A stretch of 13,007 nt of DNA from positions 1 through 13,007 of the forward strand of contig DAOOUC010000016.1 of assembly GCA_035390665.1 (NCBI GenBank), given 5' to 3'. Shown here piece by piece: positions 3,375 through 13,007 of this stretch. Positions within the stretch are counted from its first letter, which is position 1. Every line of letters starts with the position of its first letter. Source of the DNA: an archaeon. GTDB lineage: Archaea; Iainarchaeota; Iainarchaeia; Iainarchaeales; CSSED10-239. The translations under genes and the position numbers were made by a program. Below the pieces are notes generated by a model. The model worked only from the letters and a program-made list of their open reading frames with translations, was not told the origin of the DNA and ran no database searches.

Positions 3375-3385
3375 ACATATATAAA
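3375..3385 (+). promoter_or_regulatory. Archaeal TATA-box promoter element (ACATATATAAA), copy 1
   Basis: Exact 11-mer. Its last base lies 49 nt before ATG 3434. Confidence 0.5.
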
Positions 3386-3433
3386 CATTTAATTTACTAA
3401 TAATATTAATTAAATTCATCTTGGGGAATATTA

Positions 3434-4591
3434 ATGAATATTAAAAAAAAAGCCCTTTCGCCAATAGTTGCAACAATTCTTCTAGTTGTTGTTTCTGTAA
3501 TTCTTGTTTCAATTATTCTGTCTTTTGGAAAAAGTTTTACAAATCAGGGACTAGATAAGACAAAAGACATAAAAGAATTATCTCAATCAGATGCAGAACA
3601 CTTTGTTTATCCTAAGACTTTTTCTGAAGGTGTAGTTCAATTTAATTATTCTCCCCCAAACAATAGTTTTGGAGAAGTTCAAATAACTAAATATAAAATA
3701 TTATATGATAATAATGAAACAGAAGAAATTGAATTAACTACTCCGTACACCTTAAGCACAGGAACAAATCTTTTAAATCTTGAAGATTTTTCTGATCAAA
3801 ATATACCAACAAAAAAATTTGCTCTAGTTCTAGAAACAGAAGAAAATGAATATATTACATTAAAAAACATTACCAATCCTGAACCATATGTTGAAGAATT
3901 ATCTACTGAAAAATTAATCACTTCATTTATTATTTCAGAAATTTCAGGAACAATTAATAATGATAATAATACAATTTCTTTATCAGTACCATATGGAACA
4001 AATGTAACTGCACTTACGCCAACAATAATAATTTCAGATGAAACAACCATAAGTCCAGAATCAGGAATTGCTCAAGATTTTACAAATCCCGTAATTTATA
4101 CAGTAACAGCAGAAGATCAAAGTACTAGAGTTTACACAGTTACAATAATTGTAGAAGAATTAGGTCTGCTTTATCTTTATAATGAAGGGACTGGAGAAGA
4201 TGATTGGCAAGATATGTCTGGGGGTAGTAGTACTAATACAAAAGAAACAGATCATCTAAAAATATATGGATCTGATATGGCTTGGGGTGGTTTTGTTACT
4301 GTTAATAAAATTGATTTGACAGATTATAATACTTTAAATATAGATTGGGAAGGAACAATTACATTATTTCCTGCTGTTGGTAATTATTTTGGATTAGGTA
4401 ATGCCCAAGACACAACAATAGAGATGGGGGAAGGTTATGATTATAATCAAATGTCATCTCAATTTAGTAGACAAATAAGTGTATTAGATATAAGCAATAA
4501 TAATGGTGAATTTTATATAAAAGTATTACAAGCATGGTATGATTTTGGAGGAACCGCAACTACAAAGATATATAAAATCTGGTTAGAATAA
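3434..4591 (+). CDS. Archaeal type IV pilin-like (class III signal peptide) surface protein with an Ig-like module and an uncharacterised C-terminal beta-rich domain
   Basis: The N-terminus MNIKKKA/LSPIVATILLVVVSVILVSIIL matches the archaeal prepilin (Pilin_N/DUF1628-type) signal: a basic stretch, small residue, LSPI(V/I)AT, then a hydrophobic helix. nt 3905-4153 encode the module shared with CDS 1-1019. GGGG/GGAA Shine-Dalgarno-like sequence at 3423-3428. ACATATATAAA box at 3375-3385. Confidence 0.8.
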   Translation: MNIKKKALSPIVATILLVVVSVILVSIILSFGKSFTNQGLDKTKDIKELSQSDAEHFVYPKTFSEGVVQFNYSPPNNSFGEVQITKYKILYDNNETEEIELTTPYTLSTGTNLLNLEDFSDQNIPTKKFALVLETEENEYITLKNITNPEPYVEELSTEKLITSFIISEISGTINNDNNTISLSVPYGTNVTALTPTIIISDETTISPESGIAQDFTNPVIYTVTAEDQSTRVYTVTIIVEELGLLYLYNEGTGEDDWQDMSGGSSTNTKETDHLKIYGSDMAWGGFVTVNKIDLTDYNTLNIDWEGTITLFPAVGNYFGLGNAQDTTIEMGEGYDYNQMSSQFSRQISVLDISNNNGEFYIKVLQAWYDFGGTATTKIYKIWLE

Positions 4592-4592
4592 T

Positions 4593-6527
4593 TTAGTTTT
4601 CTCTTTTCTTTAGTTCTTTTATTTTATCTCTAAGCTTTATTGCTGTTTCAAAGTCAAGAGAATCTGATGCTTCGACCATTTGCTTTTCTAGTTCAATTAC
4701 TAGATTTGGTATCTCTGGCTTAGGGATATGCATTATGTCTTTAATCTCATCTATTTCTTTTTCTCTTATTGGTTTAATAATTGTTTTTGGAGTAATTCCA
4801 TATTGCATATTATATTCTAATTGAATCTTTCTTCTTCTTTCTGTTTCTTTAACTGCTCCTTTAATAGATTCAGTCATCTTGTCTGCATAGAGATGAACAT
4901 AAGATTCAGAGTTTCTTGCAGCTCTTCCAATAATTTGTATTAGACTTCTTTGATCTCTTAAGAAACCTTCTTTATCTCCATCAAGTATTCCAATAAAACT
5001 AACTTCTGGAATATCTATTCCTTCTCTTAAAAGATTAATACCGACTAGAACATCAAATTTACCAAGACGAAGCTCTCTAATGATTTCTGTTCTTTCAAGT
5101 GTGTTAATTTCAGAATGAAGATATCTTGTTTTAATTCCTTGACGAGAAAGATAATCTGCTAGTTCTTCTGCAAGTTTTTTTGTAAGAGCAGTAACTAAAC
5201 ATCTATTACCTTTAGCTATTGTTTTTCTAATATTAAATGTTAAATCTTCAATTTGGTTTTTAGAAGGTTTGATAAAGACTGGGGGATCAACTAAACCTGT
5301 TGGTCTAATAATCTGCTCAACTACTTGAGAAGATAACTTTGTTTCAAAGTCACTAGGAGTAGCAGACACAAAAATAACAGTGTCCATAAATGTTTCAAAC
5401 TCTTTAAACTTTAAAGGTCTGTTATCATAAGCAGAAGGAAGTCTAAAACCATACTCAACTAATGTTTTCTTTCTTGAATAATCTCCAGCATACATTCCAT
5501 GTAGTTGTGGTATTGTTTGATGACTTTCATCAATTACTAATAAGAAATCATCAGGGAAATAATCTAAAAGACAGAAAGGCCTTTCCCCTGGTTCTCTTTT
5601 ATCAAAATGTCTAGAGTAGTTTTCTATGCCATTACAATAACCTGTTTCTTCAATCATCTCTAAATCATATAATGTTCTTTGCTTTAATCTATGTCTTTCA
5701 AGTTCTTGTAATTCAGGAAGTCTATCTTCTAGTTCTTCTCTAATTGAATTAATTGCATCTTTTATAGAATCTTTTGAAACAACAAACTGTTTAGCAGGAT
5801 GTATAAAAAATTTATCCATATCATTTATTTTTATATTTGTGATTTTATCCATTTCTGTGATTCTGTCAATTGTTTCTCCAAATAATTCTATTCTTATGAA
5901 ATTTTGAGTATATCCTGGAGAGATATCAATAACATCTCCTTTTACTCTAAATCTTCCTGGTTCTAATTCTATATCATTTCTTTCAAATTGAAGATCAATT
6001 AATTGTCTTAAAAGTTCTGTTCTTTTTAGTTTTTGGTTTTTCTCTATTAAAAATCCTTTTTCTCTAAAAGTTTTTGGGTTACCAAGGCCATAGATACAAG
6101 AAACAGAAGCAACAACAATAACATCTTCTCTTGAGACTAGAGAAGTTGTTGCAGAAAGTCTCATCTGTTCAATCTTGTCATTTATTTTTGTGTTCTTTTC
6201 AATGTAAAGATCTTTCTGTGGAATGTAACTTTCAGGTTGATAATAATCATAATAAGAAACAAAATATTCTACTTTATTTTCAGGAAAGAAATCCTTTAAT
6301 TCGTTGTAAAGTTGTGCTGCTAAAGTCTTGTTATGGGCAAGCACCAAGGTTGGGCGATTGTAACTTGCAATAACATTTGCTATAGTAAAGCTTTTCCCTG
6401 AACCAGTAACACCAAGAAGAGTTTGAATCTTCTTGCCTCTTTTAGAAAGACCTGCTGATAGCTGCTTAATTGCATGAGGCTGATCCCCGTCTGGAGAAAA
6501 AGGAGCAACTAGCTTAAATTTGTTCAT
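4593..6527 (-). CDS. uvrB: Excinuclease ABC subunit B (UvrB)
   Basis: 644 aa. Walker A GVTGSGKSFT, DESH box (VIDESHQTIPQ), helicase C motifs (REGIDIPEV, QIIGRAARN) and a C-terminal UVR motif (DFETAIKLRDKIKELK). Collinear with UvrB along its full length. Confidence 0.95.
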   Translation of the reverse strand: MNKFKLVAPFSPDGDQPHAIKQLSAGLSKRGKKIQTLLGVTGSGKSFTIANVIASYNRPTLVLAHNKTLAAQLYNELKDFFPENKVEYFVSYYDYYQPESYIPQKDLYIEKNTKINDKIEQMRLSATTSLVSREDVIVVASVSCIYGLGNPKTFREKGFLIEKNQKLKRTELLRQLIDLQFERNDIELEPGRFRVKGDVIDISPGYTQNFIRIELFGETIDRITEMDKITNIKINDMDKFFIHPAKQFVVSKDSIKDAINSIREELEDRLPELQELERHRLKQRTLYDLEMIEETGYCNGIENYSRHFDKREPGERPFCLLDYFPDDFLLVIDESHQTIPQLHGMYAGDYSRKKTLVEYGFRLPSAYDNRPLKFKEFETFMDTVIFVSATPSDFETKLSSQVVEQIIRPTGLVDPPVFIKPSKNQIEDLTFNIRKTIAKGNRCLVTALTKKLAEELADYLSRQGIKTRYLHSEINTLERTEIIRELRLGKFDVLVGINLLREGIDIPEVSFIGILDGDKEGFLRDQRSLIQIIGRAARNSESYVHLYADKMTESIKGAVKETERRRKIQLEYNMQYGITPKTIIKPIREKEIDEIKDIMHIPKPEIPNLVIELEKQMVEASDSLDFETAIKLRDKIKELKKREN

Positions 6528-9434: not shown

Positions 9435-9821
9435 ATGTATACAGGATATTTAATTTCAGAGTCTTTTAAAAACCCAGAGTTTCTAAATAAACTTAATGTC
9501 AAAAATGTAAAAGTAGAATATTTTAAAAACGCAAAAGGGACAGGAACAAGTCTAAAGGTTTGGCATCTTTTCAAGGTTGGGGTTTCTGAAAAGAATATTG
9601 AAAAAATTTCAAAAATGATTTCTAAGAAAATCAAGGTTTCGTGGTATGTTCATTTCTATAATAAAAAGAAGTTATATCTAATTCTAACAGACAAAATATT
9701 TGTTATGCCAATGGAAGAAAACTTTAAATCTAAGGAATATCAAGACGCTTTTAAATATTCAGTAACCAAAGGCAAAATAGAAAAGAAATATATGTTTACA
9801 AAAGCTAAAGAAATAATCTAA
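9435..9821 (+). CDS. Hypothetical soluble protein (128 aa), probably co-transcribed with the ABC-2 operon
   Basis: Long ORF beginning 9 nt after the permease stop, same strand, with no TATA-like box in between. I recognise no family motif. Confidence 0.6.
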   Translation: MYTGYLISESFKNPEFLNKLNVKNVKVEYFKNAKGTGTSLKVWHLFKVGVSEKNIEKISKMISKKIKVSWYVHFYNKKKLYLILTDKIFVMPMEENFKSKEYQDAFKYSVTKGKIEKKYMFTKAKEII

Positions 9822-9833
9822 ATTGAATAAATA

Positions 9834-9844
9834 ACATATATAAA
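9834..9844 (+). promoter_or_regulatory. Archaeal TATA-box promoter element (ACATATATAAA), copy 2
   Basis: Exact 11-mer. Its last base lies 49 nt before ATG 9893, the same spacing as copy 1. Confidence 0.5.
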
Positions 9845-9892
9845 TCCATATTATCTTATAGATATTTATTAATAATATAAGGAGAAATAAAT

Positions 9893-10120
9893 ATGGATAA
9901 AGAAAAAAATGAAAACCCAACTGTTGCTTTAGCAGGAACTATTTGTGCTTTTGCAGTAGGGATTGCAGCTTTAATTGTAATCTTTGCAAAAAATTATGCT
10001 TGGATAATTATATTTACAACATTAACTTTGTGTTTCTTTGGAATAGCACTAGCAAAGAAAGATTGTTCTTGTGGTCCAAATTGTGAATGTAATACAAAAC
10101 CAAAAGATAAAAAAAAATGA
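9893..10120 (+). CDS. Small two-TM membrane protein with a cysteine-rich basic tail (CxCxxxCxC)
   Basis: Two hydrophobic helices (VALAGTICAFAVGIAALIVIFA, YAWIIIFTTLTLCFFGIALA), then KKDCSCGPNCECNTKPKDKKK (Cys motif nt 10064-10090). GGAG Shine-Dalgarno at 9882-9885. ACATATATAAA box at 9834-9844. Confidence 0.65.
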   Translation: MDKEKNENPTVALAGTICAFAVGIAALIVIFAKNYAWIIIFTTLTLCFFGIALAKKDCSCGPNCECNTKPKDKKK

Positions 10121-10130
10121 TGCTTTAACT

Positions 10131-10529
10131 ATGCCAACATTAAGACCAGCAAGAAGATTATCTCCTAAAGTCCTTGAAGATATAAAAAAAAGGAGAATAG
10201 AGAAATCAAAACCAAAAGTGCCCATTGATTATCAAACAAAGGTCTTAAAAGTTGGTGCAGAAATAAAAGCACTTAAGATTATAGCCGAATATGATCCAAT
10301 GTCTATGAAAGGATTAACAGTTGATACATTAAAACAAATAGAAACAAACATTTTAGATTTAACAAGAAAAATAACAGAAGAAATAGAAATATTAAAGAAA
10401 GCAAAATTAGAAAGAAGTAATCTTGCAGGCTTAAATATAGAGATAACTAATTTTGAAAGGCAGAAAAAAGAATCAGAAAAGATTATTGCTATTCTTGAAT
10501 CCAAGATTAAAGAAAAAACAAGACAATAA
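10131..10529 (+). CDS. Hypothetical coiled-coil protein (132 aa from ATG 10131)
   Basis: Basic N-terminus (MPTLRPARRLSPK...KRRIEKSKPK) followed by heptad-rich K/E/I/L sequence. The ORF-track start at 10071 (GTG) overlaps the upstream gene by 50 nt, so ATG 10131 is preferred. A T7 run follows directly after the stop. Confidence 0.6.
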   Translation: MPTLRPARRLSPKVLEDIKKRRIEKSKPKVPIDYQTKVLKVGAEIKALKIIAEYDPMSMKGLTVDTLKQIETNILDLTRKITEEIEILKKAKLERSNLAGLNIEITNFERQKKESEKIIAILESKIKEKTRQ

Positions 10530-10536
10530 TTTTTTT
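10530..10536 (+). terminator. Oligo-T (T7) archaeal-type terminator after the coiled-coil gene
   Basis: TAATTTTTTTAA directly follows stop codon 10527-10529. The next gene has its own TATA box 11 nt further on. Confidence 0.4.
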
Positions 10537-10546
10537 AATTCTAAAA

Positions 10547-10557
10547 ACATATATAAA
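10547..10557 (+). promoter_or_regulatory. Archaeal TATA-box promoter element (ACATATATAAA), copy 3
   Basis: Exact 11-mer. Its last base lies 23 nt before ATG 10580, which would give a leaderless or near-leaderless mRNA. Confidence 0.5.
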
Positions 10558-10579
10558 TCTTATTCTCTTTATATTTAGT

Positions 10580-11704
10580 ATGAATAAAGGTTCTAAAATT
10601 TTTGTAATTGTATTATTAGCAATAATACTTATCTCTATTGTTTATATATTTAATAATAAAATTAATGATTTAGAAGATAAATATAATATTCTAAATAATC
10701 GATATATAAAACTAAATCAAGAACATGAACAACTAATTGAAGAAAAGCAAGAATTAGAAGATCAGTTTAATGATCTTACAGCTGATTTTAAAGACTTAAC
10801 AGAAAATTACAATTCTAAGGTCTTAGAAAACAAAGAGAAAGATCAAGAAATTAATTCTTTAACAAACAACTATAATAATGTTCTAGAAAACTATCAAACT
10901 CTTAATAACGAAGTAGGAATATTTAAAACAAGAATAGAAGAATCCATGGATTGGTTTAAGAATAATTCTACTCTTGATAATCTTTCAAATCAAAGAACTA
11001 TAAAAAATAATCTTAAAAAATGTGTAACTTGCGAAGAAGAATTATGTTATATAAAAACAGCCTGTATTTATGTTATTAATCAAGAAGAACTATATCTAAA
11101 ATATGCCTTAGATTCTCAAACTTCTGGACAAGAAGACAAATTACAAACACTTGAGCAATTTCTTTTACAAAAAAAAGGAGACTGTGAGGATTTTTCTTTA
11201 TTCTTTGCTGCAGAGTTAAGATATTTGATTGAGTATGTTAATTCTCAAGAAAAAACACCAATCATTGAAGCAATTGTAGAATCAGATACTTCAAGAAGTT
11301 ATGAAATTGTTGGTAGATGGTATTACCCAGAAGGTATAGAAAAAAAAATAATTTCTAAAGAATATAGTTATCCTTATGTTGCTTGTGGTAACATTTTTGA
11401 TCCTAATACTCAAGAGATTGGAGGACATTGTTTGATAATGCTTTCAGAAGAAGAAATAAATGAAAGTCAAGATATTGAGGACTTAGACAACATAGAATTA
11501 CTAGAACCACAAAATGGATTATATATTGGAAAAGCTAAAAACAATGGAATATTTGAAACAAAAAATTCAGAAAATCAAGTTGGGCAAATAATTACAAGTG
11601 CTGACTATTATATGCACAATTCTATTCTTTACAGCAACAATACAGAAAGTCATTGGTATAGTTATGGTTATTATTACAATAAGATTATAGAATTAGAACA
11701 ATAA
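10580..11704 (+). CDS. N-terminally membrane-anchored coiled-coil protein with a C-terminal transglutaminase-like (papain-fold) Cys-His-acid core
   Basis: Signal anchor IFVIVLLAIILISIVYIF. Residues ~27-120 are coiled-coil-like with reiterated NYN/LEN motifs. GDCEDFSLFFAAELR (C202, nt 11183-11185), GGHCLIML (H283, nt 11426-11428) and LLEPQNG (E309, nt 11504-11506) match the order and spacing of the transglutaminase-core triad. ACATATATAAA box ends 23 nt before the ATG. Confidence 0.7.
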   Translation: MNKGSKIFVIVLLAIILISIVYIFNNKINDLEDKYNILNNRYIKLNQEHEQLIEEKQELEDQFNDLTADFKDLTENYNSKVLENKEKDQEINSLTNNYNNVLENYQTLNNEVGIFKTRIEESMDWFKNNSTLDNLSNQRTIKNNLKKCVTCEEELCYIKTACIYVINQEELYLKYALDSQTSGQEDKLQTLEQFLLQKKGDCEDFSLFFAAELRYLIEYVNSQEKTPIIEAIVESDTSRSYEIVGRWYYPEGIEKKIISKEYSYPYVACGNIFDPNTQEIGGHCLIMLSEEEINESQDIEDLDNIELLEPQNGLYIGKAKNNGIFETKNSENQVGQIITSADYYMHNSILYSNNTESHWYSYGYYYNKIIELEQ

Positions 11705-11830: not shown

Positions 11831-12493
11831 CTATTTTAATTTCTTTTCTAATTGATTATAGTATTCTAAACTTAATTTCCTTATGTCTTTTAGTATTGGG
11901 ATAATAATTTTTCTATCCTCTAAAAGATTTAATCTTTCTTCAAACCAAGTTATCCAAACATCTTTTCCGGATTTTTCTACTTGGTATTTGATTTCATCTA
12001 AGATAACATTCCAGTTAGGGTTTGTTCTAGCAATTGATTGACAATCATCAATATCTCCATCTCTGTCTGTGATGCTTTTGAAAACTAAGATGTCTTCTAA
12101 GGAACAAGCAAATAGTTTAATATTTTTGTATTCCTTTATTAGTTTTGCTCTTTTAATCATGTTTTCACTAAGGAAAAGATTATTACACACAATCTTATTA
12201 AAAATATCAAATCTGTAATTGTCTTTGATTAGTATATTTTCTAAATTTAATTTATGGTATTCTCTTGTTGGTTTTTCAAGTGTGAAATCATTTTTCTTGA
12301 GTGTATTGATCAATGATTCATATTCTTCTTTAGAGTTAACAATTAAGTCTATGTCTTTTGTTCCCGGTTTTGCATTATGATACAGTAGTACTGCTCCGCC
12401 TATCAGGTAGACATTTATCTTATTTCTAATATTTTTGTCAATTTCATCGAATGCTTCAGATATTTGAGTAAAATCAGTTATATATTTTTCCAT
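11831..12493 (-). CDS. Nucleotidyltransferase-fold protein (minimal NTase; AbiEii/DUF6036-like)
   Basis: LIGGAVLLYHNAKPGTKDIDLIV (nt 12347-12400) is the G-G/S...D-x-D NTase active-site strand-helix motif. A third acidic residue lies in RFDIF. The downstream SLEDILVFKSITDRDGDIDDCQSI resembles the (S.EDLI..K..A.R.KD..D) helix seen in this NTase group. Confidence 0.7.
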   Translation of the reverse strand: MEKYITDFTQISEAFDEIDKNIRNKINVYLIGGAVLLYHNAKPGTKDIDLIVNSKEEYESLINTLKKNDFTLEKPTREYHKLNLENILIKDNYRFDIFNKIVCNNLFLSENMIKRAKLIKEYKNIKLFACSLEDILVFKSITDRDGDIDDCQSIARTNPNWNVILDEIKYQVEKSGKDVWITWFEERLNLLEDRKIIIPILKDIRKLSLEYYNQLEKKLK

Positions 12494-12500
12494 TTTTTAA

Positions 12501-13007
12501 TCACATCTTTATATCATATACTTTTGCTTTTTCTTTTATTTCTTTTAGTGGAGGATATCTGTCTATTTTTTCTCCGGAAAATATTTTATTAAGGTTATCT
12601 AGTATTTCGTGCTTAATGTCTTTAAACTCGTCTTTGTATTTATAATAGAATAAAGCAAGATACATTCTGTCTCTAAATTCTTTTGTTTTTTCTACAATTG
12701 CTAAGGTGTGTAGTAGTATTTCTTGTTTAGTTAATTTCTTTTTAGGAAGGTAATAGAAGTTTTCAAGAGTATAGATAAGTAAATTATAGTCTTTAAACGC
12801 AGAAAAGGAAGTTAATGTTGCATCTATATTTTGTTTTATTGAAAACACAATTTCTTTTTCGTTTTTGTAGTAAATTGTTGAACCAACAGGCACTCTATAA
12901 TCATAGTTTCCTTGAAAACTTTTATATTCTTTTAAAAAATCAATTAAATCTGGCCAAACACTATAATTAACTATATATTCTTTATTTTCTTTAATAAATA
13001 TAGATCT
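12501..13007 (-). CDS. Hypothetical protein, 5'-truncated at the window edge; upstream partner of the NTase (possible AbiEi-like antitoxin/regulator)
   Basis: The frame is open to nt 13007 (...RSIFIKENKEYIVNYSVWPDLIDFLKEYKSFQGNYDYR precedes the GTG at 12893), so the gene begins outside the window. It stops 7 nt before the NTase ATG. I recognise no motif in the visible part. Confidence 0.6.
   Translation of the reverse strand, partial: RSIFIKENKEYIVNYSVWPDLIDFLKEYKSFQGNYDYRVPVGSTIYYKNEKEIVFSIKQNIDATLTSFSAFKDYNLLIYTLENFYYLPKKKLTKQEILLHTLAIVEKTKEFRDRMYLALFYYKYKDEFKDIKHEILDNLNKIFSGEKIDRYPPLKEIKEKAKVYDIKM

Follow-up and report, generated by a model that had tools for sequence, protein, structure and literature searches.

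The stretch of DNA considered here (the window, 13,007 nucleotides [nt] in length) comprises positions 1 to 13,007 of contig DAOOUC010000016.1, i.e., contig C16 of the 0.85-Mb genome of a DPANN-type archaeon of the Iainarchaeota (assembly GCA_035390665.1), which is 86% complete and has a GC content of about 28%. Four open reading frames (ORFs) of 128, 75, 132, and 374 amino acids (aa) follow each other on its + strand, namely p128 (9435-9821), p75 (9893-10120), p132 (10131-10529), and p374 (10580-11704). They were confirmed in the ORF listing and in the raw sequence, in agreement with an earlier description made from the letters of the window alone (hereafter the sequence-only reading). In that reading, the four genes were regarded as unassignable to any named family and as one co-functioning envelope-associated system. 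The former statement holds formally, as no model of Pfam, NCBIfam, PHROG, or PADLOC reached its threshold for any of the four proteins, but p374 can be assigned at the superfamily level. As for the latter, it is likely that the interval is instead a mosaic of three independent units, with p374 as an anchored, stalked, and predicted Ca2+-dependent cysteine peptidase. p374 is the only one of the four genes with a readable mechanism. The ratios of nonsynonymous to synonymous substitution rates (dN/dS), obtained with two congeners, were 0.07-0.13 for p75, 0.16-0.19 for p132, and 0.10-0.21 for p374, and these three are therefore real coding genes.

The p374 protein and its family

p374 contains a transmembrane helix at residues 5-25 (hydropathy, KD19 3.0), a heptad stalk at about residues 25-125, and a head at about residues 121-374 that resembles transglutaminases and the bacterial transglutaminase-like cysteine proteinases (BTLCP). 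Together with p75, which has two such helices, it accounts for the two membrane-anchored proteins that had been recognized in the row. Coiled coils were evaluated by a crude heptad score in comparison with shuffled sequences. The maximum for p374 was 0.90, the 95th percentile of the shuffled sequences being 0.75, and a long run of windows extended from about residue 13 to the beginning of the head. Two proteins had been called coiled-coil rich; the heptad signal was strong in p374 and only modest in p132 (0.72 vs. 0.62 after shuffling, at residues ~64-95).

In an alignment of 24 homologues, the residues G200-D201-C202-E203-D204, G282-H283-C284, E309, and Q311 were invariant, several further cysteines were also invariant, and P310 was nearly so. 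The transglutaminase-like triad that had been pointed out previously (C202, H283, and E309) is among these invariant positions. The codons of D201-C202-E203-D204, i.e., the putative nucleophile with its flanking LapG-type Ca2+-ligand positions, are located at 11180-11191, that of H283 in the GHC motif, the candidate general base, at 11426-11428, and those of E309-P310-Q311, with E309 as the candidate third triad residue, at 11504-11512 (all on the + strand).

A word-seeded search with p374 gave 31 clusters, all of them hypothetical proteins without Pfam domains. When 185,579 species genomes were scanned with a pattern, 45 archaeal loci were obtained, labelled Woesearchaeota, Aenigmatarchaeota, Micrarchaeota, 'ainarchaeum', and Nanoarchaeia and, in three cases, 'Methanosarcinales'; two bacterial proteins were also found, which were alike in the GDCED segment only. 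Nearly all of the 46 loci (the 45 public archaeal loci, from metagenome-assembled genomes [MAGs], and the window) share one layout, i.e., a transmembrane helix, about 170-200 residues, GDCED, a further ~80 residues to GH, and ~27 more to EPQ. GDCED was present in all 24 aligned homologues and at 45 of the 46 loci, and 43 of the 45 GDCED-bearing family members had E-P-Q about 27 residues past the His, with Glu as the acid. The Cys-to-His spacing was 81 residues in p374 and about 75-90 residues across the family. Of 171 genomes of the phylum that were at least 80% complete, 34 contained the family according to a domain-only profile, in a patchy distribution. The family has no name and occurs here and there among DPANN archaea with small genomes, nearly all of its members being from MAGs labelled as DPANN, and no description of it was found in literature searches.

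Two side observations concern individual members. The homologues in L059, L064, and L079 were on contigs labelled 'uncultured Methanosarcinales archaeon', which could be caused by mis-binning or mislabelling or reflect a real presence outside DPANN. In the closest congener (G008), the orthologue of p374 (L003/L014; contig C32, ~4397-5516) is 95-96% identical and split in two frames, with internal stops near residues 143-148; it could be either a pseudogene or the product of an assembly error.

Relationship of p374 to transglutaminase-like peptidases

Homology at the profile level was found between the p374 family and bona fide members of the transglutaminase-like superfamily. When the family profile was compared with the sequences in PDB, the best match outside the coiled coil was LapG of Legionella (4fgo, E = 1.6e-4), over Y..D...GDCEDF. 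Transglut_core (PF01841) was the sole recurrent Pfam match outside the coiled coil, detected in 11 of the 24 members, always below threshold (best E = 2.9e-4). The two bacterial GDCED proteins passed the thresholds of Transglut_core, Peptidase_C93 (PF06035), and DUF553 (PF04473), and the p374 family was aligned with them by hhalign over 46 columns with a probability of 95.7% (E = 1e-8).

The structure of residues 121-374 was predicted by AlphaFold2 (AF2) with a predicted local distance difference test (pLDDT) score of 91.5. In this model, a helix of 21 residues (82-102, numbered within the fragment) begins with the Cys, i.e., the invariant G200-D201-C202 places a G-x-C nucleophile at a helix N-terminus, and the likewise invariant H283 and E309 are on a beta-strand and at the end of the next strand, respectively. 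As modelled, this is the papain/transglutaminase arrangement. In Foldseek searches of PDB with the head, LapG was matched with a probability of 0.93 (TM-scores 0.33/0.44), and LapG in complex, 3isr, and TglA were also listed. A viral origin of p374 was considered and dropped, the fold search of the head in BFVD being empty.

LapG was both the best solved-structure profile match of p374 and among its top Foldseek matches. p374 shares with LapG and DvhG, the BTLCPs of PF06035, the Y..D...G-D-C-E-D signature with acidic residues at the Ca2+-ligand positions around the nucleophile, and all three are extracytoplasmic, in the case of p374 according to its predicted topology. DvhG has a Ca2+ site, needed for activity, that is formed by the D and E on either side of its catalytic Cys (D316/E318), and an N-terminal feature missing from the soluble LapG has been predicted for it (PMC13090378). 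In LapG, D139 is a Ca ligand as well (PMC4866520). The corresponding acidic positions (D201-C202-E203-D204) are invariant in the p374 family. However, p374 differs from LapG and DvhG in several respects. It is archaeal and below the PF06035 threshold, its third triad residue is Glu (in E-P-Q) rather than Asp, and it has a beta insert of about 45 residues between Cys and His, a long C-terminal extension, and a coiled-coil stalk of about 100 aa. The Cys-His-Asp triad with compact spacing of the BTLCPs is thus absent, the Cys-to-His distance across the family being about 75-90 residues and that in the bacterial relative ~37. Moreover, the genomic context was different. The genes expected beside that of a BTLCP are those of a LapD-like receptor, a type I secretion system, and a giant adhesin that carries a (T/A/P)AAG site, but no LapD/DvhD-like receptor, type I secretion system, or adhesin was a neighbour of p374 at the 46 loci. 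In fact, p374 had no conserved neighbour at all there, no family being present at more than 5 of the 46, and its neighbours in the relatives were housekeeping genes. p374 was placed outside the BTLCP family because PF06035 is silent, the acid is Glu and not Asp, and the insert between Cys and His is present; its membership in PF06035 was therefore rejected at the family level.

The sole match of PF06035 in the own genome (E <= 10) was another gene, on contig C2. This second protein (L039; G000:C2, locus ORF 1006-2778) is a canonical extracellular transglutaminase-like protein of 590 aa, in which a signal peptide and a C-terminal transmembrane helix flank a GVCDEFA...HAWLEVY...DPT core, and its match to PF06035 was weak.

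Two further groups were compared. With other members of the PF01841 superfamily (clan Peptidase_CA), e.g., 3isr, a putative cysteine protease of Cytophaga hutchinsonii that was among the Foldseek matches, p374 as modelled shares the Cys at the helix start and the His and acid on adjacent strands, but the two align in the Cys-helix segment only, with TM-scores of about 0.3. The surface hydrolase regulators of the PcsB/EnvC type consist of a coiled coil and a CHAP or LytM head, and they are alike to p374 in architecture only (N-terminal anchor or signal, long coiled coil, and peptidase-fold head), which is an analogy and not homology. A weak NCBIfam match to PcsB (E = 0.024) lay over the coiled coil, to which the likeness is limited; the head of p374 is neither CHAP nor LytM, and no FtsEX partner was linked to it.

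Taken together, p374 is probably a divergent, Ca2+-dependent, and extracytoplasmic cysteine peptidase, which is related to the BTLCPs but not a member of them. Its topology would be that of a type-II membrane protein, the N-terminus being inside the cell and the papain/transglutaminase-fold head being held outside the membrane by the heptad coiled-coil stalk (about 100 residues). C202 would serve as the nucleophile at the helix N-terminus and H283 as the base, oriented by E309, and D201, E203, and D204 may constitute a LapG-type Ca2+ site beside the nucleophile. Such a protein would act as a Ca2+-dependent cysteine endopeptidase, possibly an isopeptidase, on a surface or extracellular protein of the archaeon itself or of its host. 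A role at the cell surface, which had been suggested for the whole row, is accordingly plausible for p374 alone, which is very probably an anchored, stalked, and extracytoplasmic enzyme with a transglutaminase-like core, and is not supported for the set of four genes.

Several results weigh against this assignment. The Foldseek matches were weak (best E = 1e-3, TM-scores 0.33-0.44), the score of p374 was below the gathering score of PF01841 (17.8 vs. 23 bits), PF06035 did not report p374 either in the search of the own genome at E <= 10 or in the scan of p374 at E <= 1, the profile matches were confined to about 45 residues around the Cys, and Cys and His are 81 residues apart, about double the distance in the compact bacterial relative (~37). 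It could also be argued that the head has no protease function and is either a transglutaminase that cross-links surface-layer proteins or a catalytically dead binding module. In favour of this, true transglutaminases have the same fold and Cys-His-acid triad, Transglut_core was the best Pfam match, the acid is an unusual Glu in place of Asp, and there is a long insert between Cys and His. Both are considered unlikely, since the nearest matches in sequence and structure were proteases (LapG and 3isr) and not cross-linking enzymes, and since the LapG-type D-C-E-D signature is invariant. A dead domain, moreover, would hardly have kept C, H, and E strictly invariant. The peptidase assignment is therefore preferred.

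To our knowledge, it is largely unknown how DPANN archaea bind to a host, feed on it, and leave it again, and few surface enzymes have been linked to these processes. In p374, a clean catalytic signature that recurs in several DPANN lineages and is absent from Pfam would face outward on a stalk of ~15 nm (estimated from ~100 helical residues), and the LapG-type D-C-E-D calcium-switch motif would be carried into archaea. These properties make p374 a concrete and easily expressed candidate for tests of host-interface proteolysis. More speculatively, p374 could be the founder of an undescribed family of stalked Ca2+-dependent cysteine peptidases, an archaeal counterpart of LapG/DvhG that trims or releases surface proteins and in this way controls attachment to and detachment from the host; this extension is tentative and its probability is rather low. 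If it were true, the targets would be the pili or adhesins of the symbiont itself or envelope proteins of the host, and the scattered occurrence (in 34 of the 171 sampled genomes of the phylum and in four other DPANN lineages) would reflect an accessory function linked to lifestyle.

Synteny and transcription units of the four genes

The co-occurrence and order of the four genes were compared in 60 relatives, 21 of them from the same family (the own genome is designated G000). p374 was present in 12 of the 21 family genomes and in five other families of the order, and p75 was also present in 12 of the 21 and was restricted to the family. p132 was confined to the genus, and p128 was in none of the 21 family genomes, with only weak and distant matches elsewhere among the relatives. 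No conserved multi-gene system was found, since the composition varied even among congeners. For example, the order in G008 is TspO|p75-p132-p374, without ABC-2 and without p128, and in G004 and G002 ABC-2 is immediately upstream of p75 and p128 is missing. In environmental contigs, TspO|p128-p75 is followed by an unrelated 247-aa gene, or ABC-2-p128-p75 by a 142-aa gene; in L034, the unrelated 247-aa gene is in the place of p132. A cassette of ArsR, glutaredoxin, and peroxiredoxin genes is inserted between p132 and p374 in G004, G005, and G009. In other genera (G013, G016, and G018), p75 and p374 are on separate contigs, and the one-contig genome G012 has p75 but not p374. The synonymous divergence (dS) between G000 and G008 was 0.043 for p75, 0.44 for p132, and 0.14 for p374, i.e., it jumped about tenfold between adjacent genes, which suggests recombination breakpoints inside the row. 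The comparison of synteny thus came out largely against a block of four genes.

The redox cassette of G004, G005, and G009 consists of an ArsR-like helix-turn-helix protein, a glutaredoxin-like CPYC protein, and a peroxiredoxin, and it is not found in the window.

The two exact boxes that had been described before p75 and p374 are present. The TATA-box-like ACATATATAAA is located at 9834-9844, ending 48 nt before the ATG of p75, which is also preceded by an AGGAG Shine-Dalgarno sequence (9880-9884), and again at 10547-10557, ending 22 nt before the ATG of p374 (all on the + strand). A third exact copy in the window starts at 3375, and with at most one mismatch there were 6 matches in the window vs. 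1.5 expected. In the whole genome, the exact 11-mer has 13 copies, 11 of which are 16-70 nt upstream of an ORF. The ORFs behind it include PRC-barrel-like and Hjc-like genes (by our own reading of the N-terminal sequences), and TATA-like octamers were enriched 5-6.5 times upstream of genes genome-wide (686 crude gene calls). The shared 11-mer is therefore the generic TATA consensus of this genome and not the mark of a regulon. Its interpretation as a signal of surface-protein genes was rejected based on the number of genome copies, the varied genes behind them, and the generic enrichment. The same exact 11-mer was also observed 46-48 nt before the start of two paralogous pilin-like genes (MNIKKKALSPI...; C12:6447 and window 3375-4591) and of the gene for a 2076-aa acidic protein (C13:11427).

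The ATG of p128 is 9 nt past the stop of the ABC-2 permease, with GGTG 8 nt upstream, and that of p132 is 10 nt past the stop of p75. A T7 run directly after the stop of p132 (10530-10536, + strand) is a candidate archaeal-type oligo-T terminator. Judging from these spacings and the T7 run, three transcription units would be reasonable, i.e., ABC-2...p128, p75-p132, and p374, and the transcript of p374 would be near-leaderless according to the position of its box. Moreover, a box of the form AAACATATATAAATC is retained before the p374 orthologues in G008, G004, and G009 irrespective of the gene upstream, and p374 is for this reason regarded as an autonomous unit. p128 would then ride on the end of a DrrAB-type ABC-2 transcript, p75 and p132 would be co-transcribed from a consensus TATA box, and p374 would be transcribed alone from its own conserved TATA box. 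A scan of the window for bacterial promoters and terminators was uninformative, as the host is an archaeon, and the Rfam scan of the window gave no matches.

The idea that all four genes act together at the cell surface or in cell-cell contact had been based on their location on the same strand, tight packing, two membrane-anchored products, and the identical 11-mer before two of the units. It is now very improbable. Their co-occurrence is not conserved past the genus, close relatives miss or swap single members, p128 is a cytosolic domain that is seen with unrelated enzymes, and the 11-mer, which is also before PRC-barrel and Hjc-like genes, fits the generic TATA consensus. A smaller module, specific to the genus, with p75 as the anchor, p132 as a cytoplasmic adaptor, p374 as the outward enzyme, and p128 as a bystander, is less easily dismissed but still not likely. 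p75 and p132 are adjacent in G000, G008, G004, and G005 and, in diverged form, in G002 and L038, and p374 is 0-6 kb further along the same strand in G008, G004, G005, and G009. This order, kept within the genus, counts against three wholly independent units, and a lineage-specific functional link of p75, p132, and p374 could exist. However, p374 has its own conserved promoter with the candidate T-run terminator before it, three congeners have unrelated redox genes between p132 and p374, several DPANN lineages have p374 but neither p75 nor p132, G012 and G002 have p75 but no p374, and p132 is swapped for the unrelated gene in L034. The mosaic of three units is thus the preferred interpretation; the four genes should not be propagated as a module, nor the 11-mer be read as a regulon signal.

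Properties of p75, p132, p128, and a neighbouring gene

p75 is a microprotein of 75 aa that ends in poly-Lys and in which two hydrophobic helices were detected (KD19 of the best window, 2.6). The CxCxxxCxC tail that had been noticed previously is present (C58-x-C60-xxx-C64-x-C66, nt 10064-10090). Among 10 homologues (alignment A5), however, this motif was present in 4, degenerate in 2, and absent in 4, whereas the transmembrane hairpin was highly conserved across the family and the poly-Lys end was general. The Cys cluster is thus not conserved as in a metallothionein, and the hairpin is the conserved part. No credible match was found when the p75 family profile was compared with PDB. The genes upstream of p75 are often those of transporters, none of which is constant, i.e., ABC-2 in several congeners and, by our own reading of the sequences, ZIP-like in G012 and G021 and AI-2E-like in G013. 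p75 would be a membrane hairpin of two helices whose ends both face the cytoplasm, with a poly-Lys tail. In another genus (G012 and G021; L031 and L030), the genes before p75 encode a metal permease of the ZIP family and a Cys-rich membrane protein of 173 aa, and p75 is convergent with a gene for a DUF45/YgjP-like metallopeptidase.

p132 has 132 aa when counted from the ATG, and an alternative GTG start at 10071 would give 152 aa. It is a basic, helical, and genus-restricted orphan; no transmembrane helix was detected by hydropathy, and no match was found in Pfam, PDB, PHROG, or PADLOC. Its homologues were those of close relatives, together with proteins of 52% identity in G005 and 27-29% in G002/L038. 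In L015 (G004:C49:1153-1777), codon 111 of the p132 orthologue is an in-frame TAA, and the Cys cluster has been lost from the p75 orthologue; truncated variants of p132 with 95-110 aa are present in public data (P0141-P0143). A programmed frameshift from p75 to p132 at the A9 run was considered and rejected, because the offset of the two starts modulo 3 is 1 in G000, G004, and L038, 0 in G005, and 2 in G002. As this frame relation varies, the A9 run encodes the Lys tail and is not a conserved frameshift site, and the poly-Lys end is common to all p75 homologues, including those that are not followed by a p132 gene. p132 may be a fast-evolving cytoplasmic protein and, most simply, a lineage-specific partner or passenger of p75.

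p128 is soluble, without a transmembrane helix by hydropathy, and belongs to a widespread and unnamed family of domains of about 120 aa. An exhaustive HMMER search gave 93 clusters at E <= 1e-3, mostly stand-alone proteins of this size, and E9, W43, W70, and F89 are conserved in the family (alignment A3). The family had no sequence match in Pfam or PDB. In Foldseek searches with the AF2 model of p128 (pLDDT 90), only PII/GlnK proteins, of ferredoxin fold, were matched and weakly so (probability up to 0.99, TM-scores 0.3-0.5, E only 0.03-0.1). Membership in the PII (GlnB) family was not supported, no Pfam or NCBIfam P-II match being found in p128 and 40 family members. In comparison with PII and PotN, p128 has an extra C-terminal helical part, and neither a T-loop nor a nucleotide motif was identified in it. 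Some PII-like proteins regulate transporters; the linkage of p128 to ABC-2 is not conserved. A role of p128 as a dedicated ABC-2 accessory was rejected, since there are environmental contigs in which p128 comes after TspO and ABC-2 is absent, and since G004 and G002 have ABC-2 but no p128. Domains of this type are fused elsewhere to 2-thiouracil desulfurase (TudS), NUDIX, VOC/glyoxalase (twice), cupin, DUF3850/ASCH, and DUF5680, and these fusion partners point to a cytosolic, small-molecule context and not to the envelope. p128 is accordingly a member of a cytosolic domain family whose modelled fold is ferredoxin-like and weakly PII-like. In one case (L021; G058:C1:554541-555359), the domain makes up the C-terminal half of a 272-aa protein, the N-terminal half of which is a 2-thiouracil desulfurase (PF04463, E = 3e-39).

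Downstream of the four genes, at 11831-13007 on the - strand of the window, a 220-aa protein and its upstream partner were without a PADLOC model match. For the 220-aa protein, the matches were to the nucleotidyltransferase families DUF6036 (E = 7e-8) and DUF2204, and for its partner only a faint one to HVO_2833_C.

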